Source of the DNA: Candidatus Babelota bacterium
Lineage (GTDB): Bacteria > Babelota > Babeliae > Babelales > Babelaceae
DNA length: 64,000 bases
NCBI GenBank assembly: GCA_003165355.1
Contig: PLTG01000021.1
Coordinates: forward strand, 334 to 64,333
Reading direction: 5' to 3'
Position numbers and translations under genes: made by a program. Positions 4,351 through 44,884 of this stretch are shown here, piece after piece (within the stretch, counting starts at the first letter, position 1; each line of letters begins with the position of its first letter). Under the pieces are notes generated by a model. That model saw only the letters and a program-made list of their open reading frames with translations, searched no databases and was not told the origin of the DNA.

Positions 4351-4587
4351 ATGATACGTTTATTTATTGAATCTATTGTAAAAGGTCTTGTCGATAACCC
4401 ATCTGCTGTAGCAGTGCAAGAGATGCCGGTTGAGAACAGCCCTTTGTATGTCATTCAAATAAAGGTTGCAGGAAGCGATATTGCTCGAGTCATTGGCTCA
4501 GAAGGCCGTGTCTTTAGGGCATTGCGTACGGCATCTAATCTTCTTGCTCCGGGCCATATTAAAGAAATTGTTGTTGACGTCGCTTAG
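4351..4587 (+). CDS. KH-domain RNA-binding protein (YlqC/UPF0109-like)
   Basis: 78-aa ORF between rpsP and trmD, the position of ylqC in many bacteria. Contains the KH-like GxxG region VIGSEGRVFRALR. Confidence 0.8.
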   Translation: MIRLFIESIVKGLVDNPSAVAVQEMPVENSPLYVIQIKVAGSDIARVIGSEGRVFRALRTASNLLAPGHIKEIVVDVA

Positions 4588-4612
4588 TCAACATCATGCG
4601 TGAACATTCATC

Positions 4613-5977
4613 ATGAATATCTCAGTCGTTACGCTTTTTCCCGCTCTGTATAAACCTTTTTTTTCAACAAGTTTAGTCGAGCGCGCACAAAAGGCAGGTA
4701 TTATAGACCCTCACGTCTATGACCTGTTTTCGTATGCTGCGCCAAAAGAGCGCGTTGATGGCCCTACTTTCGGCCATGGCGCAGGGATGGTTATAAAACC
4801 AGAGATTGTCGAGCGTGCGGTAACTGATCTTGAAACTAAGCATGGTTCTGCCTATAAGGTCTTTTTTTCGCCACGAGGCAAAAAATTGGATCAATTGTCA
4901 TTGCATCTTTTATACGAGCGTATGCGTCAGCAGCAGAAGGATCATCTTATGCTCCTTCCGGCTCGTTATGAGGGCATGGACGCCCGCATTGAAACGGAAT
5001 ATGCCGATGATATTATCTCAATTGGTGACTTTGTGTTAATGGGTGGCGACTTGCCGGCAATGGTTTTTCTTGAGGGGCTTTTACGTTTCGTTCCGGCTGT
5101 TGTGGGTAAATCTGAATCGGTTGAGCAGGATTCGTTCACCGGTCCTTTTGTTGATTATCCAGAATACACGGCACCTGTTGAATGGAAAGGGCATACCGTT
5201 CCTGAGATTCTCCGTTCTGGTAACCATAAGGCAATCGCCGATTGGCGCCTGCACGAAGTTGCTCGCGAGTCGGTGGTGCACCATTTTGATTGGGTTCGCT
5301 CATATCCGACGCACACCCCAAGCCAAGAGAAAGAGATTCAGCGCTGCTTACCCAACCATTACGTGGTGCTGATGCATAGCGAAGTACTGGTTATTGAAGA
5401 TAAGGTGACCAAAAAGACAGGGACCACCTCAGTAACCTCTTTGGATATACATGATATTGCCCGTTCTGCAACGACCTATGGATTAAAAAATTATTTTATC
5501 GTTACTCCTCTTTCGGATCAACAGGCGATTGTAAAGACGCTTTTGGGCTTCTGGCAGCAGGGTCCCGGCATTTCTTATAATAACCATCGCCATGAGGCGG
5601 TTAACCGTGTTATATTGGAAGCCACTCTCGATAATGTTATCGCGCAGATAACCGAGCGTGAAGGGAAACCGCCTCTTTTGATTGCTACTGGCGCTCAAAA
5701 AGATGGCCACCCGGGGACTATTACCTTTAATGACCAGGAAAAGGTTTGGGTGCACGACCGTCCGGTACTGATTATTCTCGGTACAGGGCAAGGGTTAAGC
5801 CCCGAGCTTATGGAGCGGTGCGATTATCGATTTGTGCCACTTGAAGGCTTTTCTGCGTTTAACCATCTATCGGTCCGTTCTGCTGCAGCGGTCATTTTTG
5901 ATCGTTGGTTAGGAAAGAGCCCGAGTAAAATCGATAAAAAAGATATAATTGAGAATGACAGCATGAAATTTTTTTAG
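4613..5977 (+). CDS. trmD: tRNA (guanine37-N1)-methyltransferase TrmD fused to a second SPOUT (Tm1570 / Methyltrn_RNA_4-like) domain
   Basis: Residues 1-245 align by eye with TrmD (LFP..., YEGMDARI, IGDFVLMGGDLPAMV, LRSGNHKAIADWR). Residues ~250-440 carry TSVTSLDIHDIARSATTYG, ILGTGQGL and FNHLSVRSAAAVIFDRWLG, typical of the Tm1570-type SPOUT family. It is a single uninterrupted 454-aa frame. Confidence 0.9.
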   Translation: MNISVVTLFPALYKPFFSTSLVERAQKAGIIDPHVYDLFSYAAPKERVDGPTFGHGAGMVIKPEIVERAVTDLETKHGSAYKVFFSPRGKKLDQLSLHLLYERMRQQQKDHLMLLPARYEGMDARIETEYADDIISIGDFVLMGGDLPAMVFLEGLLRFVPAVVGKSESVEQDSFTGPFVDYPEYTAPVEWKGHTVPEILRSGNHKAIADWRLHEVARESVVHHFDWVRSYPTHTPSQEKEIQRCLPNHYVVLMHSEVLVIEDKVTKKTGTTSVTSLDIHDIARSATTYGLKNYFIVTPLSDQQAIVKTLLGFWQQGPGISYNNHRHEAVNRVILEATLDNVIAQITEREGKPPLLIATGAQKDGHPGTITFNDQEKVWVHDRPVLIILGTGQGLSPELMERCDYRFVPLEGFSAFNHLSVRSAAAVIFDRWLGKSPSKIDKKDIIENDSMKFF

Positions 5978-6015: not shown

Positions 6016-6417
6016 ATGAAATCAGTAAAATATACCAGAGAAACCATTAAAGACCTCGGACAATACGATCGTGGTTTTCCAAAGTTTCAAGTTGGTGACT
6101 GCATCGAAGTTGCATTAAAAGTTAAAGAGGGCGATAAGACACGTCTTCAGATGTTTGAAGGTGACGTTATTGCGATGCACAAAAGTGGTGTTTCTTCTAC
6201 CTTTACTATTCGTCGTATCGGCGCTAATGGTATTGCTATCGAAAGAATTTTACCCTTTTATTCGCCAGCAATCGACTCTATTAAATACCTTCACCAAGGT
6301 GATGTACGTCGTTCAAAACTTTACTATATGAGAAGTCGTATTGGTAAAGCAGCTCGTGTTAAAGAAAAAGTTCTTACCAAAGAGCAAAAAAATGCTCAAA
6401 AAGCATCAGTTAAGTAA
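6016..6417 (+). CDS. rplS: 50S ribosomal protein L19
   Basis: The FQVGDCIEV...RLQMFEGDVIAMHKSG...FTIRRI pattern is typical of L19. Confidence 0.97.
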   Translation: MKSVKYTRETIKDLGQYDRGFPKFQVGDCIEVALKVKEGDKTRLQMFEGDVIAMHKSGVSSTFTIRRIGANGIAIERILPFYSPAIDSIKYLHQGDVRRSKLYYMRSRIGKAARVKEKVLTKEQKNAQKASVK

Positions 6418-6802
6418 TTGGCTCGCGCTTGGGTTCATTGTTGTTTTACCGGCCTGTTACAAGAAATTGAGTAAACAGCCTGTTTTGCATTATTATGACC
6501 AGCAACCAGCCTTAACAACAGAAGCGCATCTTGCAGATATTCCATTGCCTATCCAGGCATCTGTTCATATGCTCAGCGGATCGACTGCTACCACGACAGG
6601 GCTCACTTTTGTCAGCACTTTCTCGTTAGCAGATCTGGTCAAGTTCTATGAATTTGAGATGGAGAGGCTGGGGTGGAGACAGTTGCACCTTTTTAGTGTC
6701 ACTTCTGAAGTGTTACTGGTGTTCGAAAAGCCTGAAAAATTCTGCACCGTATCGGTCCGCCCGGATCATCGAGTGGTTATATTTTTCGGTTCTCGAGCAT
6801 AA
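6392..6802 (+). CDS. putative lipoprotein
   Basis: The track ORF 6341..6802 overlaps rplS. The internal ATG at 6392 gives MLKKHQLSNWLALGFIVVLPAC with a lipobox-like LPAC. No domain recognised. Confidence 0.6.
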   Translation: MLKKHQLSNWLALGFIVVLPACYKKLSKQPVLHYYDQQPALTTEAHLADIPLPIQASVHMLSGSTATTTGLTFVSTFSLADLVKFYEFEMERLGWRQLHLFSVTSEVLLVFEKPEKFCTVSVRPDHRVVIFFGSRA

Positions 6803-6809
6803 AGATATC

Positions 6810-6836
6810 AAAAGCCCCCAGAGATGGGGGCTTTTT
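6810..6836 (+). terminator. rho-independent terminator
   Basis: Hairpin gccccc-agagat-gggggc followed by ttttt. The 23-mer aaaagcccccagagatgggggct recurs exactly at 7540-7562. Confidence 0.7.
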
Positions 6837-6847
6837 CATTATTATAT

Positions 6848-7068
6848 GCGCCCTGCGGCCGTGTCCGCCATAGCTGCCGATTAGTTTAGCTAAAAGTTAA
6901 AACGAGAGCGACGGCTGGAGCCGCGCGCTAAGGGGCCTTGGCGATAAGTCCCCTTAACCTCCAGTCTACGTTTATCCATGCCTACCGGCTTGGCAAACTA
7001 CGACGGACAGGCCTGATCGATTACTGCCGTGCCCGCCATAGCTCGCAGAGCGACGGGGGGCGTGAAGC
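6848..7068. repeat. GC-rich intergenic island holding two copies of a dispersed repeat module
   Basis: Module CTGC..GTG(T/C)CCGCCATAGC ... GCGACGG occurs at 6848-6920 (with an AT-rich insert) and 7024-7068. A third copy lies at 47423-47475. The GC content is visibly far above the flanking sequence. Confidence 0.6.
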
Positions 7069-7268
7069 TGAAAACAGTGCGCCACAGCGCACCAAATCTA
7101 GATTTGTCGACATATCTTCGCTTCGCTCGATGAGTCTCGGCACGAGATTTTCCTCGACTTCTTATTTTATAGAAATAGCGTTCACCATATTTTTATTGCG
7201 AAATGCTAAACATATTCTTTATACTTATAATGTAAAGTAATGAAATAAAACCTAAAAGGATATGGATT

Positions 7269-7487
7269 ATGTTAAAAGTAATGAAGTATTTAACTCTTGT
7301 TTTGAGTGTAAGCTCAATAGGCTTAAGTTATGCAGCGGATTTGACAGACGCAGATTGCGAAGCCTTATCTAAAACGGCTGGCGGTGCTGCGGTATTTATG
7401 GTGCAAGGGGGAGCATGTACGGCTTCTGGCGATGGTTGGCACTTTTACAAGGGTGCTAGCACGACAGCAAACAAAAAAAGCTCTTAA
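7269..7487 (+). CDS. small secreted Cys-containing protein
   Basis: 72-aa ORF with leader MLKVMKYLTLVLSVSSIGLSYA. Followed by a terminator at 7540. Confidence 0.5.
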   Translation: MLKVMKYLTLVLSVSSIGLSYAADLTDADCEALSKTAGGAAVFMVQGGACTASGDGWHFYKGASTTANKKSS

Positions 7488-7539
7488 TGTTTGCGGGACT
7501 TTTTAAATATAAATGACCGTCTTGACTAATTTTGCAATA

Positions 7540-7572
7540 AAAAGCCCCCAGAGATGGGGGCTATCTTTTTTT
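7540..7572. terminator. bidirectional rho-independent terminator (second copy of the 6810 hairpin)
   Basis: Sequence aaaaagccccc-agagat-gggggctatcttttttt sits between convergent genes, with an A-run upstream and a T-run downstream. Confidence 0.65.
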
Positions 7573-7588
7573 AATCTAAATTTATAAT

Positions 7589-13624: not shown

Positions 13625-14236
13625 ATGAATGATCAGTTACCTACCCTTACCAAATTATTAAAACAATTGCAGCAGGTGCCCTATCTCGCTTCAAAGAATT
13701 TGTACCGGGTTGCTCACCATTTTTTGCAAATGGATGGACAGCGTTTGGCTCAATTTTGTGCGATCATGCAAGAGGCGCATGCAGGGCTTAAAAAGTGCGA
13801 CGTCTGTTGCGCGTGGCAGGAACGTCAGGGCGCATGCAGCTTCTGTTCGTCCACCAAGCGGGACACGTCACTCATTTGTGTAGTTGAGACCTGGTACGAT
13901 CTCTATGCCATTGAAAAAACGGGTGGCTTTCAAGGAGTATACCATGTATTGGGGGGCGCAATTTCCCCACTAGACGGTATCTCACCAGAGGATCTTTCGG
14001 TGAGCCAGCTTGTTGCGCGTTTATCCAACGGGTGCACAGAACTTATCTTCGCGTTAAATCAGACGCCAGAAGGTGAGGCAACCTCTTCATATATTGCCCG
14101 GAAAATTAATCAGGGTCATCCTGAGCGAACTTTTAAAATTACCTGTTTATCACGCGGTGTGCCGGTCGGTTCTTCATTGGAATCCGTTGACCGTGTTACC
14201 GTATTTAAAGCTTTAGCAGAAAGGCGTCTTTTTTGA
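13625..14236 (+). CDS. recR: recombination protein RecR
   Basis: Cys4 zinc finger (CDVCCAW...CSFC) and a Toprim region (ICVVETWYDLYAIEKTG, YHVLGG). Confidence 0.95.
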   Translation: MNDQLPTLTKLLKQLQQVPYLASKNLYRVAHHFLQMDGQRLAQFCAIMQEAHAGLKKCDVCCAWQERQGACSFCSSTKRDTSLICVVETWYDLYAIEKTGGFQGVYHVLGGAISPLDGISPEDLSVSQLVARLSNGCTELIFALNQTPEGEATSSYIARKINQGHPERTFKITCLSRGVPVGSSLESVDRVTVFKALAERRLF

Positions 14237-15546
14237 AACAGTCTTACGCATTTTACGATCGTCGACGTAAAGAACTTATTGATACTCTAAAAAAACAGAA
14301 CCCAACCATTAAAAATGGCGCGGTCATGCTCCTTGCAGGGTTTGAAGATGGCAAGCACACGTTTAGGCAAGAGTCATCCTTTTACTATTATACCGGGTTA
14401 ACTGAGCCGGGCTTGGTCTTGATTATCGAGCTGTCCGGGAAGTCCCGTCTTTTTATTCCTGCCTATGCTACTCCACGTTCAGATTGGTTAGTGGAAGAAG
14501 TTGTCGCTACGAAAGAGTGCGCACAGAATCTATCCCTGAGTGAAGTGAGCTATCTGGGTAAACCGCAGCAGGGCTACGAGCCGAGCCTTTTAGTCGGAGC
14601 AGAGCAGTACCAAGATTTTATTGCATACCTTAAGAATTTGATAGATGCTGGTGGCTCTCTGTTTACGTACACTGCCGTCAAAAAAAACGTGGTCTATCCG
14701 ATGTTTTTGATGCAGATGCGTACATTTTTACCCACGCTTATGGAGCATCTACGCGATATCAGCTTGCCTATCGCTGCCCAGCGTTCACGCAAAAACAAAT
14801 TTGAAATCGAGCTGATGTACAAAGCCGTTGAGTTGACCATGGTCGCTCAAGAGGCTGCTGCTCGCGTTATTCAGCCGGGCATCAAAGAATCGATTATTAA
14901 AGCGGGCATTGAATATATCTTTGCCGAATCAGAAGGTTCGCCTGCATTTCCATCTATTGTTGCAACGGGTAAAAATAGCACCATACTCCATTACCATAAC
15001 GGCAATGCTGCGATTAAGCCGAATGATCTTGTAGTGGTCGATATCGGTGCTGAATATGAATACTATTGCGCAGATATCACGCGTACCTACCCAGCATCTG
15101 GAACGTTTACTAAGCGCCAACGCGAAGTGTATGAGGCGGTGCTTGCTACGCATGAATATATTGCTACTCTTGCAAAACCGGGCATGTTCTTGCGCAATGC
15201 AGAAAAACCTGAGCTTTCGCTGCACCATTTAGCCGTAGCGCACTTGGAGAAAAAGGGTTTTGCCAAATACTTTAAGCATGGCATTGGCCATTACTTGGGC
15301 CTTGATGTGCATGATGTGGGTGATTACGCTCAACCTCTTGAAGAGGGTAATGTTATTACCATTGAGCCGGGCATTTACATTCCGGAAGAGAACATCGGTA
15401 TTCGCATTGAAGATGATTATTGGATTGTCAGTGATGGTGCTGAGTGCTTGAGCGCTGAGCTGCCTCGTGATGCTGAGTCTGTTCAAGAGATGGCGCGAGC
15501 GTCGATTGATGATGAAGATGAGGATGACGAAGAAGATTACGATTAA
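14233..15546 (+). CDS. pepP: Xaa-Pro aminopeptidase (M24B)
   Basis: M24B metal-ligand blocks DIGAEYEYYCADITRT, HGIGHYLGLDVHD, TIEPGIY and IRIEDD. Has an acidic tail DDEDEDDEEDYD. Confidence 0.9.
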   Translation: MKQSYAFYDRRRKELIDTLKKQNPTIKNGAVMLLAGFEDGKHTFRQESSFYYYTGLTEPGLVLIIELSGKSRLFIPAYATPRSDWLVEEVVATKECAQNLSLSEVSYLGKPQQGYEPSLLVGAEQYQDFIAYLKNLIDAGGSLFTYTAVKKNVVYPMFLMQMRTFLPTLMEHLRDISLPIAAQRSRKNKFEIELMYKAVELTMVAQEAAARVIQPGIKESIIKAGIEYIFAESEGSPAFPSIVATGKNSTILHYHNGNAAIKPNDLVVVDIGAEYEYYCADITRTYPASGTFTKRQREVYEAVLATHEYIATLAKPGMFLRNAEKPELSLHHLAVAHLEKKGFAKYFKHGIGHYLGLDVHDVGDYAQPLEEGNVITIEPGIYIPEENIGIRIEDDYWIVSDGAECLSAELPRDAESVQEMARASIDDEDEDDEEDYD

Positions 15547-15552
15547 TATAAA

Positions 15553-15580
15553 AAAAGGGGACTGAAAAAGTCCCTTTTCT
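15553..15580. terminator. bidirectional terminator after pepP
   Basis: Sequence aaaaaaa-ggggact-gaaaa-agtccc-ttttct lies between convergent genes. Confidence 0.6.
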
Positions 15581-15599
15581 CAAATGCTAGTTACAAGCA

Positions 15600-16331
15600 C
15601 TATCTTTTTAAAACTTTATCTATCAACTTTGATAAGTTTTTTTTCTTTTTTTCCTGAGGTATGTCTTTGCCGACGATTATTTCGGGGGCAATATTGGCAT
15701 GAACATGGCCCTCGAGTAAATGTTGTATATCGTTAGAAAGTGCTTGGATACGTGCACTTTCTTTATCTTGCAGAGACATTTTTTTATTCCGTATACATTC
15801 TTGCTGGCATGCAAAAAACTTTTTTACGGTAGTGGCTGATAGGCTTGCATTATCAGGATTTTCCATGAGCACACTTTCCGCTTGCTTAAAGGTCTCTTCT
15901 GTGAAAGGAGTTAGTGATTCTTTATCTTGAACTGTATTGCCATGATAGCCTCTGCGATAACTAACTTTATGTGCACGTTCAGCAACCCCATACCTATCAT
16001 ATTTGATAACATCAAGAAGATACCCTACCAATTCCGGCTTTATGGCGTGGCATATTTGTGCAAGCGTGGTTGAGTCTTTTAGGTAATAATCTTGTTTATC
16101 ATGCCAATCCCCATGAAAAGGATATTCTGCTGCGAAAGCCCCAGATAAAAAAGTATCGAGATTTTTTTGTTCTTGAGAGTGCATGTTTTCAGGAATTTCG
16201 CTCAAGGATTTTCGTATACCATCAAGATCAAATTCCTTTTTCTTTTCTGAGAGTGCATACGTCGACTCTGAGGCATAGCTTATTTTTGGCGTCAGAAGCA
16301 TAAGAATCATTAATGTTTTGAAATAGTCCAT
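15600..16331 (-). CDS. secreted hypothetical protein (paralog of 17168..17683)
   Basis: Leader MDYFKTLMILMLLTPKISYA. The segment KKEFDLDGIRKSLSEIPEN...QEQKNLDTFLS aligns with KKKYDIEKIRKELGSIPDE...QKQNDLYDLLS in 17168..17683. Confidence 0.65.
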   Translation of the reverse strand: MDYFKTLMILMLLTPKISYASESTYALSEKKKEFDLDGIRKSLSEIPENMHSQEQKNLDTFLSGAFAAEYPFHGDWHDKQDYYLKDSTTLAQICHAIKPELVGYLLDVIKYDRYGVAERAHKVSYRRGYHGNTVQDKESLTPFTEETFKQAESVLMENPDNASLSATTVKKFFACQQECIRNKKMSLQDKESARIQALSNDIQHLLEGHVHANIAPEIIVGKDIPQEKKKKNLSKLIDKVLKR

Positions 16332-16459
16332 ACATCAGTCCTTCGGGTAATGGTTTTGTGGTGATTTCCGCAGATGAGTTTAGATATAATCAGTTATCTA
16401 TGTCAATTATGGCTACAATTTACTTTTATTTTTAAGGGAATTTGTCTCATAATATAGCT

Positions 16460-16591
16460 CATCTAGAGAAAAAGGGCTTTGCTCAATTCGTTAAGCACGG
16501 TACTGAATGCTTGAGTGCTGAGTCTGTTCAAGAGATGGCGCGAGCGTCGATTGATGATGAAGATGAGGATGACGAAGAAGATTACGATTAA
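16460..16591 (+). pseudogene. decayed duplicate of the pepP 3' end
   Basis: 16517-16594 is identical base for base to 15472-15549 (78 nt, offset 1045), including the stop codon. 16460-16516 matches pepP 15241-15282 and 15436-15471 with substitutions and internal deletions. No start codon and no N-terminal domain. Confidence 0.8.
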
Positions 16592-16595
16592 TATC

Positions 16596-16630
16596 AAAAA
16601 GGGGGGGACTGAAAAAGTCCCCCTTCTTTT
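16596..16630. terminator. second copy of the pepP terminator hairpin
   Basis: Sequence aaaaa-gggggggact-gaaaa-agtccccc-ttctttt. This is the same hairpin as 15553-15580 with a longer G/C stem. Confidence 0.5.
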
Positions 16631-16718
16631 GATTTATTTTTTAAAAAGTCTAATGTTCTCTTCGCTCAAAATCCACCTTATGGAATAAATTCAATTTCAG
16701 AAGAGCTCTATGATATCT

Positions 16719-17045
16719 CTATAATTTACTCGTACTTCTGAGAGCTTTAATCACCTGCGCAAGATCATAAGAAAGTTCGCGTATGGCATTTTTCCATGTT
16801 GGCACTACGATGTGGCGATCAAAAAAGTCTTGAATGGTGTCCTTAACAACTGCATCGACATCAAGCGTTGATTTCTCTTTTTCAGCAATTCGTTCAACAA
16901 TTGTTGTATGAAGGGCAAATACTTCAAATCCCTGCGCTGTGAGATACTGCTTTAAAATTTCGGCCTTAGGGAAGGTAGTCGTCGCCGCGCAGGTGGCACT
17001 TATAGAGATTAAAAATACTTTTAAGATACTGTTATTTTTCATCAC
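16719..17045 (-). CDS. small secreted hypothetical protein
   Basis: 108-aa ORF with leader MMKNNSILKVFLISISATCAA. Confidence 0.55.
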   Translation of the reverse strand: MMKNNSILKVFLISISATCAATTTFPKAEILKQYLTAQGFEVFALHTTIVERIAEKEKSTLDVDAVVKDTIQDFFDRHIVVPTWKNAIRELSYDLAQVIKALRSTSKL

Positions 17046-17167
17046 GCCTCACTTTGATTTTTTCATGTGCATTGAGTATAGGCCGTGCGGTGGTTATTTG
17101 TCCAATAAAAAGGGACAGTTTTTTACGCTGTCCCTCATGAAGAAATAGTTTATAGTCTTTAAAAAGA

Positions 17168-17683
17168 TTACTTCGTTGTACCTTTAAGTAATTCGTCTAC
17201 TCGTTTTTGAACCTTTTCGCTTTTTATAGTTGTTTGCGCGTTTAAGACATCTCTAAAAAAAGCGCATGATTCGCAATTGGTTTTTTTGTTTAAGATCCCA
17301 ATCGCATCTTTATGGCGCTTCATGAGTCGATCATTAGTGGGCCAGCTTTCTTTTCGAATGACCCCATCACTGTCTTTTTCTAGCGTTTCAATGAGATATG
17401 TCATAAAATCAAGATCAATGGTGTGACAACCCAGGGCGAGGTAAACTTCGTTTGCTAAGGTAAGAGTTTCACCGAGCCAGCCCTTATAAAGATTTAATCC
17501 ATGGGAAAGAAGGTCATATAAATCATTTTGCTTTTGTGTGCGTTGCTCATCGGGGATAGAGCCTAGTTCTTTTCTAATTTTTTCTATATCGTATTTCTTT
17601 TTAATCGGTTGTTCAGCTGGCAATGCAAAAAGTGGGCTTGATGCTAAAAGAGTTATAACTGATAGTTTTTGTAGTAAGTTCAT
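17168..17683 (-). CDS. secreted hypothetical protein (paralog of 15600..16331)
   Basis: Leader MNLLQKLSVITLLASSPLFA. Shares conserved blocks with 15600..16331, including CH(A/T)I...YL(L/I). Confidence 0.65.
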   Translation of the reverse strand: MNLLQKLSVITLLASSPLFALPAEQPIKKKYDIEKIRKELGSIPDEQRTQKQNDLYDLLSHGLNLYKGWLGETLTLANEVYLALGCHTIDLDFMTYLIETLEKDSDGVIRKESWPTNDRLMKRHKDAIGILNKKTNCESCAFFRDVLNAQTTIKSEKVQKRVDELLKGTTK

Positions 17684-17780
17684 AAAATGCTCTCTTGTTC
17701 TTTAAGAGTTTGTATATATTTCTCTGAACAAGTGTACGGCGATTATCAATTTTGTCGATTATTGAGAACAAAAACTAGAA

Positions 17781-18221
17781 CTATTTTTTAGGCCGGGAAA
17801 AATACCAGTAGCTGCCTTTTGCGATAATGACGGGCTTTTTCAAGGTCTTGATATAAAATTGCGGGTCATATTCTTGCACCGCTTTTTCAAAGGTCGGCAG
17901 CACTTGAAAGGCACTTATTTTCCCCATGTTCCGTTGGCGTAAATTTTGCAACGTGAGCCCAAGCTTTTTAACTGGTTCTTTTTTTGAGGTGATCAGCGTT
18001 GAAAGATATGTATCGCACCATTCATTAAATGACAAGCTTGGGATAGCGCCTTTTTGCAAGAGCGATTTTATCTCATCAATAACTGCCGCTTCTTTAGATT
18101 GCTTTAAAGCAGCATTGTTTGCTGGTGCTTTGTTTGCAAGAGGTTTCATTCTGCAAGCAAGTTGTTGGCTAAAAGACAGGGGAAAAATAACCATGAGAGA
18201 TAGCGATACTATTTTATTCAT
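17781..18221 (-). CDS. secreted hypothetical protein (paralog of 18218..18604)
   Basis: ATG at 18221 gives the leader MNKIVSLSLMVIFPLSFS. This start overlaps the upstream stop as ATGA. Blocks TFEKAVQEYDPQF and IIAKGSYWY align with TFTKAVKVHNPDF and IVAAGTQWW in the neighbour. Confidence 0.65.
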   Translation of the reverse strand: MNKIVSLSLMVIFPLSFSQQLACRMKPLANKAPANNAALKQSKEAAVIDEIKSLLQKGAIPSLSFNEWCDTYLSTLITSKKEPVKKLGLTLQNLRQRNMGKISAFQVLPTFEKAVQEYDPQFYIKTLKKPVIIAKGSYWYFSRPKK

Positions 18222-18772: not shown

Positions 18773-20368
18773 TTACTTGCCAAAGTAGTTTCTTATAAGC
18801 AATAAACTGAGCGTCACGCCAAAACCTGTCCCGATGCATAAGGCCAGAGTAATTCCATAAGAAAGCGTTAGCGGCAAGCAAATCAGGAGTGAAAAGCCTG
18901 CTAACGCCCCGATCAGAGCCGAGGACGCATAGCTTATTTGTGTCCGTACGTGATCCAGGTGATAGCAGCCAGCAGAGAATGAGGTCATGATCATAGCGTC
19001 AGTAATAGGAGAAAAATGGCTCCCCGCAACCGCCCCGGAAAAGAGAGCCCCCAGCACCGGGTATAAATTATTCAAAAAGGTAGGCGATCCGAGTGCAATT
19101 TTATAATAGAGAGGGATGGTTATCGGGAGCATTAACGCGATAGTACCCCAGACCGAACCGGTAGAGGCTGAGATAACAAGACAGGCGATAAATATTAAAA
19201 GAGGTAGATAGGCAACAGAAAGCTCAGTAGGGAGTAACGAGGCCAAATAAGCCCCTGTCTGCAGATCGTTTTTGAGCAACGTGCTCAAGGTCCACGCTAG
19301 TAGAAGAACCAATAACGAATTTTTCATAAGCATAAAGCCATCAAAAAATGCTTGAGCAATATAACGATAGTGCTGAGCGTTATTACGCAAAAACAGGAGC
19401 ACGGTAACAGATACTGCTATCATGCTGGCCACAAAAAGAGCCCAGAAAGGGTCCGCTTGCTGCAATGTTTGCATAAAATATGCAGATCCGCCAAATATAA
19501 CGCTATCACCAGAGTAGGCCACCGCACCTAAAAAGCTCAAAATAAATGTGGCGATGGGCACTATGAAGTCCAATAGGGTCCCCTTAAATTGTTCATCGGC
19601 CGTGGTTGTATAGAGAGCTGGCTTGCCGCCATACAGATTGCCCGTGTTTTGAGCCTCTTGCTCAAAGGTCCTCATGGTCCCGAACGAAAGATTGCAGGAG
19701 ACGATTATCCAAGCGGAAAAGACTATAAGTAATGGATATAAAATGAAGGGGATACATGAGATGTAGACAAAAAGGGAATCTTGTTGGACAAGAGCATCAT
19801 GGTTGCTTTGACTAATGCCTGAGGCTCGCATTTGGGCCAATATAAAGGCTACCCAGCTACTTGCAGGGACAAGTATGCATAAAGGGCCGCTCATAGAATC
19901 GAGCAAGAATGCCAGTTTAGCGCGGGCGATCTTGAAATGGTCCGTTACTGGCCGCATAATCGCACCGACGGTGAGGTTGTTCACGTAGTCATCGATAAAA
20001 AGGGTGCTTGAAAGCACAAGGGATGTCTGCTGGGCCGCACGCTTGGTTTTAATAAAAGTGAGCAAAAATTTGGTATAGGCCCTGATACCCCCTGAATGGT
20101 TCATAAGCTGAATGAGTACCCCTAAAAAAAGTAAAAAGCTAAAGGTGTAGACATGGTCGAGGGGTCCTTTCGTTACTAAACTGCCCAGATGGGTCTCTTC
20201 AGCAACCCGCTGGATGGCCAGAGTAAGGGCAGAAAGTGGGCTGAAATCTGTAGCTATCAGGCAGGCCATTAATATGCCACTGGTAAGGGATATAAGGACA
20301 TTGCGGGTAGCGATGGTTAAAATAATAACAATAAGTGGCGGTAATGTTGCCAGCCATGGATAAAGCAT
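18773..20368 (-). CDS. NhaC-family Na+/H+ antiporter-like transporter
   Basis: 531-aa polytopic membrane protein. GSHFSPITDAMIMTSFSAGCYHLDHVRTQ resembles the NhaC C-terminal signature (GDHCSPISDTTIxSS...HVxTQ). Confidence 0.7.
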   Translation of the reverse strand: MLYPWLATLPPLIVIILTIATRNVLISLTSGILMACLIATDFSPLSALTLAIQRVAEETHLGSLVTKGPLDHVYTFSFLLFLGVLIQLMNHSGGIRAYTKFLLTFIKTKRAAQQTSLVLSSTLFIDDYVNNLTVGAIMRPVTDHFKIARAKLAFLLDSMSGPLCILVPASSWVAFILAQMRASGISQSNHDALVQQDSLFVYISCIPFILYPLLIVFSAWIIVSCNLSFGTMRTFEQEAQNTGNLYGGKPALYTTTADEQFKGTLLDFIVPIATFILSFLGAVAYSGDSVIFGGSAYFMQTLQQADPFWALFVASMIAVSVTVLLFLRNNAQHYRYIAQAFFDGFMLMKNSLLVLLLAWTLSTLLKNDLQTGAYLASLLPTELSVAYLPLLIFIACLVISASTGSVWGTIALMLPITIPLYYKIALGSPTFLNNLYPVLGALFSGAVAGSHFSPITDAMIMTSFSAGCYHLDHVRTQISYASSALIGALAGFSLLICLPLTLSYGITLALCIGTGFGVTLSLLLIRNYFGK

Positions 20369-20525
20369 AAAAAGCCTTTTAAAAGTTGACCAATAAGTAC
20401 TTTTTTATTACAGTGAATAGTACCCCTGTAAGTTTTTAAGCAGTATAACAAAAAAGTGCGTTAAGCGCACCAATATACGCAAAATGCATACAATATGCGC
20501 TCTGCGTCTTCTAAGGTACTTTAAT

Positions 20526-20963
20526 ATGGATATGAATAAATCATTTTTCTTACGTAGCGAAAAACATACCCCAGAATGGCGTGTTATTGATGCTCAAGGA
20601 CAAGTTGTTGGTCGTCTTGCGACTCAGATCGCTGATATTTTGCGCGGCAAAAACACCGCTCAATACACCCCGCATGCTGATGGCGGCGATTATGTAGTGG
20701 TAATTAACGCAAGTAAAGTTGTCTTTACAGGTAATAAATTACAAGATAAAAAATATGAGTGGTACACCGGTTACATGGGTGGTCTTAAATCTCTTACCGC
20801 TCAAGAGATGATGAAACGTAATCCAGAAGACGTTTTAATTAAGGCAGTTAAAGGTATGCTTCCTAAAAATAAACTTGCTGATGCGATTATCAAAAAATTA
20901 AAAGTATACGCTGGTTCTGAACATCCGCACCAAGCACAAGTTACTAAAGCTGTAGCTGAGTAA
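20526..20963 (+). CDS. rplM: 50S ribosomal protein L13
   Basis: The WRVIDAQGQVVGRLATQIADILRGK pattern is typical of L13. The start is placed at MDMNKS (20526), with 20532 an alternative. The track ORF starts at 20484. Confidence 0.95.
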   Translation: MDMNKSFFLRSEKHTPEWRVIDAQGQVVGRLATQIADILRGKNTAQYTPHADGGDYVVVINASKVVFTGNKLQDKKYEWYTGYMGGLKSLTAQEMMKRNPEDVLIKAVKGMLPKNKLADAIIKKLKVYAGSEHPHQAQVTKAVAE

Positions 20964-44077: not shown

Positions 44078-44305
44078 TTGGATAACTCTGCAGCTATTAA
44101 AGACCTGCTCGAGCTTGAGATTCGACCATTAATCCGACAAGATGGTGGTGATATTGAGTTTGTAGGCTTTGATAACGGTGTAGTTACCATAAAGTTTTCA
44201 GGGGCATGTGTATCATGCCCCTATTCTATTTTTACCCTTAAGATGGGTATCTTAGACCGCCTGGTCGATAAATTTCCTGACATCAAAGATGTAGTGTCAG
44301 AATAG
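44078..44305 (+). CDS. NifU-like (Nfu-type) Fe-S cluster domain protein
   Basis: TTG start. IRPLIRQDGGDIEFVGFDNGVVTIKFSGACVSCPYS matches the NifU C-terminal domain with CxxC. Confidence 0.85.
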   Translation: MDNSAAIKDLLELEIRPLIRQDGGDIEFVGFDNGVVTIKFSGACVSCPYSIFTLKMGILDRLVDKFPDIKDVVSE

Positions 44306-44570: not shown

Positions 44571-44789
44571 GATATATCCTTTTTTTATAGTTTGTTTATT
44601 TTAAAACTCGAAGATGCACATCGCACCTTCTTAATTCTGATAGTATCAAGCGCCCCCCCTCGAGTCAATAGATAATTCATACTAGGATTTTTACAATTTG
44701 CCCTTTTGCACATAAAAAGGGCATCTTGGACCAACTGGTCAGCTTGCCGGCATAGTTTGCCAATATTACTTCGTTACTTGCGTAGCTAT

Positions 44790-44884
44790 ACAAAGTACAG
44801 GTCAAAGCTTCAGCGTAGGGGAAAGGATGGATAGGCGAAGCCTGGGATAAATTTCCCGTCATCAAAGATGTTGTCGCCCTCTAA
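44790..44884 (+). pseudogene. decayed duplicate of the nfu 3' end
   Basis: 44846-44884 (gataaatttcccgtcatcaaagatgttgtc...taa, DKFPVIKDVV) mirrors nfu 44267-44305 (gataaatttcctgacatcaaagatgtagtg...tag, DKFPDIKDVV). Weaker similarity extends about 50 nt upstream. An in-frame TAG lies at 44816. Confidence 0.55.

Follow-up and report, generated by a model that had tools for sequence, protein, structure and literature searches.

A secreted-protein gene between perfect repeats of the pepP 3' end, present in some and absent from other natural populations of a Candidatus Babelota bacterium

We analyzed a stretch of 64,000 nucleotides (nt) from a Candidatus Babelota bacterium (GenBank assembly GCA_003165355.1, contig PLTG01000021.1; the whole stretch is called the window, and its positions are used throughout) and found that a 1,045-bp unit downstream of pepP, the gene for Xaa-Pro aminopeptidase, occurs in some natural populations and is exactly missing from others. 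The unit (15550-16594, or equivalently 15471-16515) contains one gene for a secreted protein of 243 amino acids (aa), p243, and lies between two identical direct repeats of 79 nt made from the pepP 3' end. Both forms, with and without the unit, exist in nature, and we are highly confident that the presence/absence polymorphism is real. The second repeat is the tail of a decayed copy of the pepP end, and the explanation that we consider reasonably probable combines an old duplication, a recent conversion of the last 79 nt and deletion by recombination between the repeats.

The bacterium belongs to the Dependentiae, which are uncultured or barely cultured. The genome studied here has a size of 1.30 Mb in 86 contigs, an estimated completeness of 92% and a G+C content of 40%. 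Members of the group, also known as TM6, are obligate parasites of protists (PMC4776705, PMC6561590).

Two forms of the pepP locus

The intact pepP gene (14233-15546, plus strand) encodes 437 aa and matches the Pfam families Peptidase_M24 (E = 8e-56) and AMP_N; orthologues with 77-86% aa identity are found in the same yidC-recR-pepP order in four relatives within the genus. Copy 1 of the repeat (15471-15549, plus strand) comprises the last 76 nt of pepP, whose stop codon is at 15544-15546, and 3 nt beyond. Copy 2 (16516-16594, plus strand) is identical: a repeat search and direct reading gave 79 nt with zero mismatches, in direct orientation and with an offset of 1045. An earlier reading, made from the sequence alone, had the identity and the offset right and placed the copies at 15472-15549 and 16517-16594, one base short of the full length (78 instead of 79 nt). 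The repeat has exactly two occurrences in the genome. Besides one repeat, the unit holds a terminator hairpin (T1), p243 with its promoter-like region and a decayed piece of pepP; a second hairpin (T2) and a gene for another small protein, p108, follow copy 2.

Both allele forms were assessed on assembled contigs from many public assemblies, among them those of ENA and JGI, and the contigs of the locus were gathered by exact-protein look-ups with p243, pepP, p108 and p171, a paralogue of p243. Contigs with names of the type k141_... are products of MEGAHIT with a final k of 141, which exceeds the length of the repeat. We found both copies in the order of the window in at least six independent assemblies, including ENA ERZ27247314 (20 kb), ERZ27247313 and ERZ27254231 (79 kb), all with k141_... 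contigs, and JGI 3300036876 (32 kb), 3300014491 and 3300021083. Relative to the window they have zero to four single-nucleotide polymorphisms (SNPs), and to the left of copy 2 the pepP-derived sequence continues in the correct order and frame.

An empty site, which the sequence-only reading had proposed to look for, came up in the look-ups with p108 and p171, in five contigs that lack exactly 1,045 bp. In all of them the true pepP runs through a single repeat into T2 and p108, and the sequence equals the window minus exactly 15550-16594. Two are k141 contigs from ENA: L073 (ERZ27254124, k141_66596) covers 14949-15549 and then 16595-17643 with one SNP, and L075 (ERZ27254122, k141_137527) covers 15010-15549 and then 16595-17244 with none. 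Two are scaffolds of WOOD18-1: L072 (SAMN07124971) has nearly the same span as L073 and four SNPs, and L074 (SAMN07124970) covers 14960-15549 and then 16595-17244 with zero SNPs. The fifth, L065 from JGI 3300037063, covers 15379-15549 and then 16595-18102, again with zero SNPs. The true-pepP side of the empty contigs was reported as 460-600 nt, the listed span of L065 starting at 15379, and the other side reaches up to 1.5 kb. L072 and L073 start at the same coordinate (14949) and have a SNP in common, and L074 and L075 both end at 17244, which suggests that either pair represents one sample processed by two pipelines; the evidence for the empty form probably amounts to five assemblies from two or three samples. 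The exact-protein look-up with p243 returned no contig from any sample that gave an empty contig. Among the loci fetched, there was no contig joining the 16515-side sequence via the repeat to 15550. An exact scan of JGI metagenome contigs with the 79-mer gave no match, probably because the scanned set excludes records near the window's genome.

The flanks of the empty contigs have the haplotype of the window, save for a private SNP at 16714 in L072 and L073, while the cassette-bearing contigs vary among themselves at 15438, 15575, 16669, 17138, 17973, 18580 and 20260. The empty form therefore appears to nest within the cassette-bearing diversity, a pattern that would weakly favour a recent deletion over an insertion.

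A decayed copy of the pepP end within a secreted-gene array

The whole second copy (16453-16594) is a truncated direct copy of pepP 15234-15549 minus 174 nt. According to the alignment, its decayed 5' part (16453-16515, plus strand) corresponds to pepP 15234-15470 from which 156 nt and 18 nt are missing; the longer deletion lies between ATGG-type repeats and the shorter between GCTGAG repeats, and both keep the pepP frame. The presence of an internally deleted pepP copy at this place had been recognized before, and the extents given here replace the earlier ones. An open frame of 49 aa with a TTG start (16442-16591, plus strand) runs through the fragment in the pepP frame and was called as a gene by JGI in three contigs; it is probably not functional.

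Compared with the live gene, the second copy shows, from left to right, 13 mismatches in 53 positions, 2 in 20, 0 in the 79 of the perfect tract and 5 in the 31 of the hairpin, the last with additional run-length indels. Outside the tract the divergence thus amounts to 20/104 or ~19%, and at that level 79 consecutive matches have a probability of ~1e-7. The identity block is sharply edged by diverged homologous sequence on both sides, the pattern of a conversion tract, and perfect identity beside such diverged flanks fits conversion, one of the two causes suggested by the earlier reading. The sampled strains are at least 99.9% identical, and none deviates from the 79 nt in either copy. In the four genus relatives for which the locus was examined, we found no second pepP end downstream of pepP, and the duplicate therefore seems to have arisen in this lineage; no relic of a pepP fragment was found in the secreted-gene array of the sister species, either. 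An early count in which the fragment appeared closer to the pepP of the sister species (6 versus 11 differences in 46 nt), hinting at a foreign donor, did not hold, as the fragment matches every member of the genus at 39-42 of 53 positions. A search of 15000-17300 against Rfam gave sub-threshold noise only.

Each repeat is followed by a bidirectional terminator consisting of an A-run, a stem-loop and a T-run. T1 (15554-15578, both strands) serves pepP and p243, folds with -13.8 kcal/mol on the plus and -13.2 kcal/mol on the minus strand (z ~ -3.6) and has a terminator-like match on the minus strand. T2 (16593-16633, both strands) has a longer stem, serves the fragment and p108, folds with -24.7 and -21.5 kcal/mol (z of -5.4 and -4.8) and is terminator-like on both strands. 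The two hairpins had been described as the same; they are indeed related, but only 26 of 31 positions agree (84%), and the lengths of their G and C runs differ. Two cassette-bearing strains (L042 and L044) have a T>C change at 15575 that lengthens the stem of T1 and brings it closer to T2, explained equally well by a small conversion from T2 or by a compensatory, stem-improving mutation.

The p243 gene (15600-16331, minus strand) encodes an N-terminal Sec-type export leader, as expected for the minus-strand gene of a secreted protein noticed between the repeats, and belongs to a genus-restricted, fast-evolving family. It matched no Pfam family, a search among 5.8 billion proteins recovered only p243 itself, and its AF2 model, of moderate confidence with a mean predicted local distance difference test score of 73.8, had no fold match in the PDB at E <= 0.001. 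Upstream of the gene and inside the unit, a promoter-like site (16377-16406, minus strand; TTGACA-18-TAAACT) agrees with the consensus at 10 of 12 positions; it is a suggestive candidate, the count of a consensus scan in the region being no higher than in shuffled sequences. The paralogue seen further on is p171 (17168-17683, minus strand), a distant one with blastp E = 5e-10 and 28% identity over 120 aa. Between them, p108 (16719-17045, minus strand) encodes a small protein with an export leader, abuts T2 and becomes the convergent neighbour of pepP in the empty form. The idea that p108 is a decayed second p243 was rejected, since tblastn and hhalign against the family profile matched the leader only.

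In every member of the genus, small genes with export leaders fill the interval from pepP to the gene for a Na+/H+ antiporter in a hypervariable run. In the sister species, whose pepP is 86% identical, the interval consists of minus-strand genes for 178, 196, 167, 138, 151 and 134 aa, followed by the antiporter. The best match of p243 there is the 178-aa gene adjoining pepP (E = 4e-13) and that of p171 the 167-aa gene in the corresponding position (E = 3e-12); altogether, the homologues of p243 are p171 and three tandem genes beside pepP in the sister species. As p243 and p171 each match their own positional counterpart, their paralogy would predate the split of the species. With a homologue at the same position in the sister species, p243 is not foreign to the locus, and of the proposed footprint of a cassette insertion or duplication we retain the discrete, repeat-bounded unit with an empty site, but neither a foreign gene nor a dedicated integrase or cassette mechanism is indicated.

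Within 5 kb, the neighbours include genes for a mur ligase, MerR, YidC, RecR, PepP, small secreted proteins, the antiporter and L13. Open reading frames (ORFs) and Pfam matches at 10-21 kb of the window revealed no recombinase, transposase, integrase or IntI in the unit or within 5 kb of it, and the repeat search found no inverted terminal repeats at the ends of the unit. The genome encodes RecA (413 bits) and MutS (264 bits), and RecR lies inside the window. In a 66%-complete metagenome-assembled genome (MAG) of a genus relative (G004:C5:86921-88187, L021), the pepP frame is in five pieces, three of them with an in-frame TAA or TGA, reflecting either a pseudogene or a poor-quality assembly.

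Duplicated gene ends elsewhere in the genome

For 1,379 crude genes, a batch BLAST searched the contig of each gene with the gene's last 150 nt, and we kept matches of at least 32 bits within 3.5 kb. Direct-orientation matches were found downstream for 57 genes and upstream for 56, the numbers for inverted matches being 0 and 4. Of the downstream matches, 24 are orphan 3'-end fragments and not full paralogues. About seven other loci share the layout seen at pepP, with a gene, one or two convergent genes, mostly with an export leader, and finally an orphan duplicate of the end of the first gene; the genome thus does hold further duplications of gene 3' ends flanking secreted-protein genes, which the sequence-only reading had recommended looking for. 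The identities of the relics range from 100% down to 60% and suggest a continuing process of birth and decay.

The end of nfu (44267-44305) is repeated at 44846-44884 with an 87-aa gene in between. The relic is old: it keeps an ancestral DVVAL* where the live gene ends in DVVSE*, and the sister species retains ~11 nt of it in the corresponding place. At the S9 peptidase locus (contig C11:18579-21566; 99.5% and 95.6% identity), a convergent export-leader gene of 158 aa is followed by the last 600 nt of the peptidase with an in-frame 222-nt deletion, which has 5 nt of microhomology at its junction and leaves a 93-aa frame. Gene callers annotated this relic as a Peptidase_S9 protein, and two other assemblies confirm the locus. 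None of the five genus relatives has the S9 peptidase gene, making a comparison of the locus there impossible, and for both the nfu and the S9 peptidase loci only cassette-bearing contigs are on record, with no empty site among them. Two paralogous secreted genes lie between a DHFR-like gene and its relic on contig C83, and contig C24 carries the same layout for murD and a second gene. On contig C1, one duplication (84% identity over 177 nt) takes in the last 46 nt of an umuC-like gene as well as the 3' part of the convergent gene beside it, and a segmental duplication of a gene end and its neighbour is directly visible.

Some further repeats differ in their details. The nfu relic (44700-44884) consists of a ...GILDxLV copy at ~44712-44740 and a DKFPVIKDVVAL* tail at 44846-44884, split by an insert of ~105 nt with 49% G+C. 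The complete genome of another member of the genus, G001 (L051, reverse strand), carries an equally split relic with a homologous insert directly after the nfu stop, where no secreted gene intervenes; conservation of such noncoding DNA at this distance is unexpected and may indicate a function. The GC-rich insert was considered as a high-copy mobile element and rejected, as the genome contains one partial second match.

On contig C3, a perfect direct repeat of 242 nt (4490-4731 and 6363-6604, 1.9 kb apart) brackets a 363-aa export-leader gene; it is made up of the 3' end of a 189-aa transposase-like ORF and a truncated copy of 103 aa. On contig C16, an apparently noncoding direct repeat of 197 nt with 87% identity (19378-19574 and 20187-20379), followed by masked N runs at ~20750-20870, brackets a convergent, leader-bearing SpeD-like (S-adenosylmethionine decarboxylase) gene. 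Blocks with 95-98% identity on contigs C79 (15894-16044/16613-16764) and C33 (2105-2294/2776-2965) each precede two co-oriented secreted-protein paralogues with nearly unrelated bodies; the block on C79 comprises the 3' end of the upstream gene and intergenic sequence, and that on C33 also extends over the initial 17 codons of the gene behind it. The abrupt changes from identical to diverged sequence point to recombination or conversion restricted to the 5' flank. Within the window, a terminator-like hairpin, AAAAGCCCCCAGAGATGGGGGCT, is duplicated at 6807-6845 and 7537-7575, 730 nt apart, and brackets a GC-rich island and a 72-aa export-leader gene; only the hairpin is duplicated here and no gene end.

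Origin of the unit and comparison with known systems

Under the explanation that we favour, the secreted-gene array would contain an old duplicate that covers the 3' end of pepP and the terminator, and copy 2 would be the tail of this partial copy. The duplicate could have originated in an intrachromosomal segmental duplication of the pepP end, the terminator and the neighbouring gene, followed by loss or replacement, and would have decayed through ~19% of substitutions and two slippage deletions. The last 79 nt may then have been re-homogenised recently with the live gene, or the live gene with them, by RecA-type gene conversion or unequal exchange. A crossover between the perfect repeats would pop out one unit and leave pepP joined via a single repeat to T2 and p108; re-insertion or amplification of the unit could follow from the reverse reaction or from unequal exchange between sisters. 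The two direct repeats are long enough for RecA-type recombination, and the empty allele lacks exactly one repeat and the intervening DNA. We infer homologous recombination as the mechanism because the junction is precise and one repeat is retained, and we propose that the perfect 79-nt repeat makes the pop-out much likelier and therefore accounts for the polymorphism seen now. We likewise infer the conversion, the old age of the duplicate, the deletion (not insertion) as the recent event and the first origin. The mechanism would be textbook homologous recombination acting on a re-homogenised gene-end relic, with a well-documented example at this locus.

Several observations weigh against this account. 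The gene after copy 2, p108, is unrelated to p243, and a simple tandem duplication of the pepP end and p243 requires a later loss or replacement: the terminator is duplicated and the next gene is not; on C1, part of the following gene is duplicated too. Gene and relic are homologous only as far as the stop codon at several sister loci, which suits stacked alternative haplotypes better than random duplication breakpoints. Conversion between copies with ~19% divergence would be rare in a genome bearing MutS, the five empty contigs have short lengths of 1.2-1.7 kb, and the polarity argument uses a handful of SNPs and ignores recombination.

The most probable alternative is an additive, Campbell-type or one-sided homologous integration, which we regard as possible though rather unlikely. 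A segment from a related lineage with the pepP end, terminator, p243 and promoter region would have crossed over within the last 79 nt of pepP, displacing the resident terminator and p108 downstream; the empty form would be ancestral, the 19% divergence of the flanks would reflect the distance between donor and recipient, and the perfect tract would mark the zone of crossover or heteroduplex. The empty form is exactly as expected for a pre-integration site, and the fragment, T2 and p108 make up a complete natural module of a gene end, a bidirectional terminator and a convergent gene. The homology of the pepP copies stops just past the terminator, and the relics of nfu, the S9 peptidase, the DHFR-like gene, murD and the one on C64 end at the stop codon, where the conserved sequence of two haplotypes would end. 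The derived DVVSE* of the live nfu opposite the ancestral DVVAL* of its relic, and the sister homologue of p243 directly beside pepP, also fit. Nevertheless, such an integration needs two deletions to have occurred beforehand or to have been gained within <0.1% divergence, and a run of 79 identical bases between partners that are ~19% diverged is an extra assumption. The 5' part of the fragment is equally distant from every pepP of the genus (39-42/53), with no donor identified among them, the empty haplotypes nest in the cassette-bearing SNP diversity, and we know of no DNA-uptake route for this group.

The remaining explanations appear far less probable. A dedicated mobile cassette, integron-like or driven by an integrase or transposase and targeting gene 3' ends or terminators, would turn the repeats into att sites or a long target duplication. 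A discrete single-gene unit of ~1 kb with precise excision, the recurrence of the layout at ~7 loci and the hairpins bracketing both the pepP unit and that at 6807-7575 recommend it, but we consider it very improbable: neither the unit nor the surrounding 5 kb contains a recombinase or transposase, inverted terminal repeats were not found, the repeat at every locus is that locus's own gene end with no common site or motif, the duplications of 40-600 nt far exceed known target-site duplications, and a homologue of p243 holds the same position in the sister species. Similarly low is the probability that selection maintains the tract, copy 2 and the hairpin functioning, for example, as an RNA element or, through read-through from p108, as an antisense partner of the pepP mRNA end. 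The perfect tract beside decayed flanks and the in-frame deletions, with a 49-aa ORF kept in the pepP fragment and a 93-aa ORF in the S9 peptidase relic, are in its favour. However, Rfam gave no match above noise, a function would not demand identity to the pepP coding sequence, the entire copy is dispensable in the empty haplotype, and three in-frame deletions out of three have a chance probability of only ~1 in 27, and slippage between in-phase codon repeats favours in-frame events anyway. The least probable explanation, at a level that we consider almost negligible, is an assembly artefact in which a collapsed or misjoined repeat produced the two-copy or the empty form. The genome is a MAG of 86 contigs, the JGI contigs L059 (starting at 15471) and L043 (ending at 16508) break at the edge of the repeat or within 8 nt of it, Logan contigs with k=31 break within it, and the empty contigs are short. 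Against this, the two-copy form, for which the sequence-only reading had raised the concern, spans at least six assemblies made by different pipelines, with k=141 exceeding 79, and has ordered, in-frame pepP-derived sequence to the left of copy 2, beyond the invention of an assembler; the empty form is found in two k=141 contigs, two scaffolds of another pipeline and one JGI contig, and the exact-protein look-up recovered no p243 contig from the samples of the empty form.

The locus offers a clean natural example, with both alleles in hand, of a secreted-protein gene being present or absent through what is probably plain homologous recombination, and similar relics elsewhere in the genome form a graded series. 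Together they provide a concrete and testable model for effector turnover in reduced genomes without mobile-element machinery. More tentatively, and with considerable doubt, the duplicated 3' ends of conserved genes could serve as built-in homology arms in a general, recombination-only cassette system for secreted-protein genes. The common layout of the ~7 loci, the homology that often ends at the stop codon and the nfu case common to two sister species speak for such a system, which would allow single candidate host-interaction genes to be stacked, lost, regained or amplified beside housekeeping genes without a dedicated recombinase. The unit may also be used as a marker in strain-level population studies of peat and permafrost metagenomes, and the 49-aa and 93-aa "genes" called here, being relics, call for caution in the annotation of MAGs.

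Among known systems, insertion sequences (IS) and transposons differ in having inverted terminal repeats and a transposase, both missing here, and a short target duplication; the duplication at this locus is at least 79 nt. Integron cassettes resemble the unit in their size of ~1 kb, their single gene and their hairpin-forming borders; the pepP locus differs in lacking IntI, attI and a shared attC, its hairpins are bidirectional terminators, and its repeats are derived from a gene. Some integrative elements duplicate the 3' end of the gene that they target, as is known from transfer RNA and transfer-messenger RNA genes and, with e14 and phage 21, from icd. As in those, the upstream gene is intact, a direct repeat of its 3' end stands at the far side, and the empty site has one copy; unlike those, the unit has no integrase, comprises 1 kb and one gene, uses repeats of the locus itself and has a positional homologue in the sister species.

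The orphan modules of rhs-CT and cdiA-CT are displaced 3' fragments of the main gene that lie downstream and recombine with it (PMC3967940). In Salmonella rhs, the stretch of high identity is 522 bp at 95% and supports recombination, and additive homologous integration is the route proposed for the orphan fragments (PMC3967940). The pepP locus likewise has a partial 3' copy of the upstream gene downstream, past an intervening gene and with a stretch of high identity. It departs from the rhs and cdiA orphans in that the fragment has no alternative C-terminal domain, its tail being identical to the live pepP, and in that pepP is a housekeeping gene and not a polymorphic toxin. Between the gene and its fragment stands a convergent gene for a secreted protein, not an immunity gene, and its neighbours have export leaders and belong to no known family.

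Closest in mechanism is the RecA-dependent unequal exchange that deletes or duplicates DNA between direct repeats, as in the segregation of tandem duplications; copy-number mutations in bacteria are reviewed in PMC13732712. As there, the repeats have the same orientation, the loss product keeps one of them, no dedicated enzyme is involved, and both states coexist. The differences are that the repeat at pepP is the re-homogenised tail of a decayed housekeeping-gene fragment and not a copy of an IS or rRNA gene, and that the two states were observed in wild populations of an uncultured intracellular parasite and not in selection experiments.

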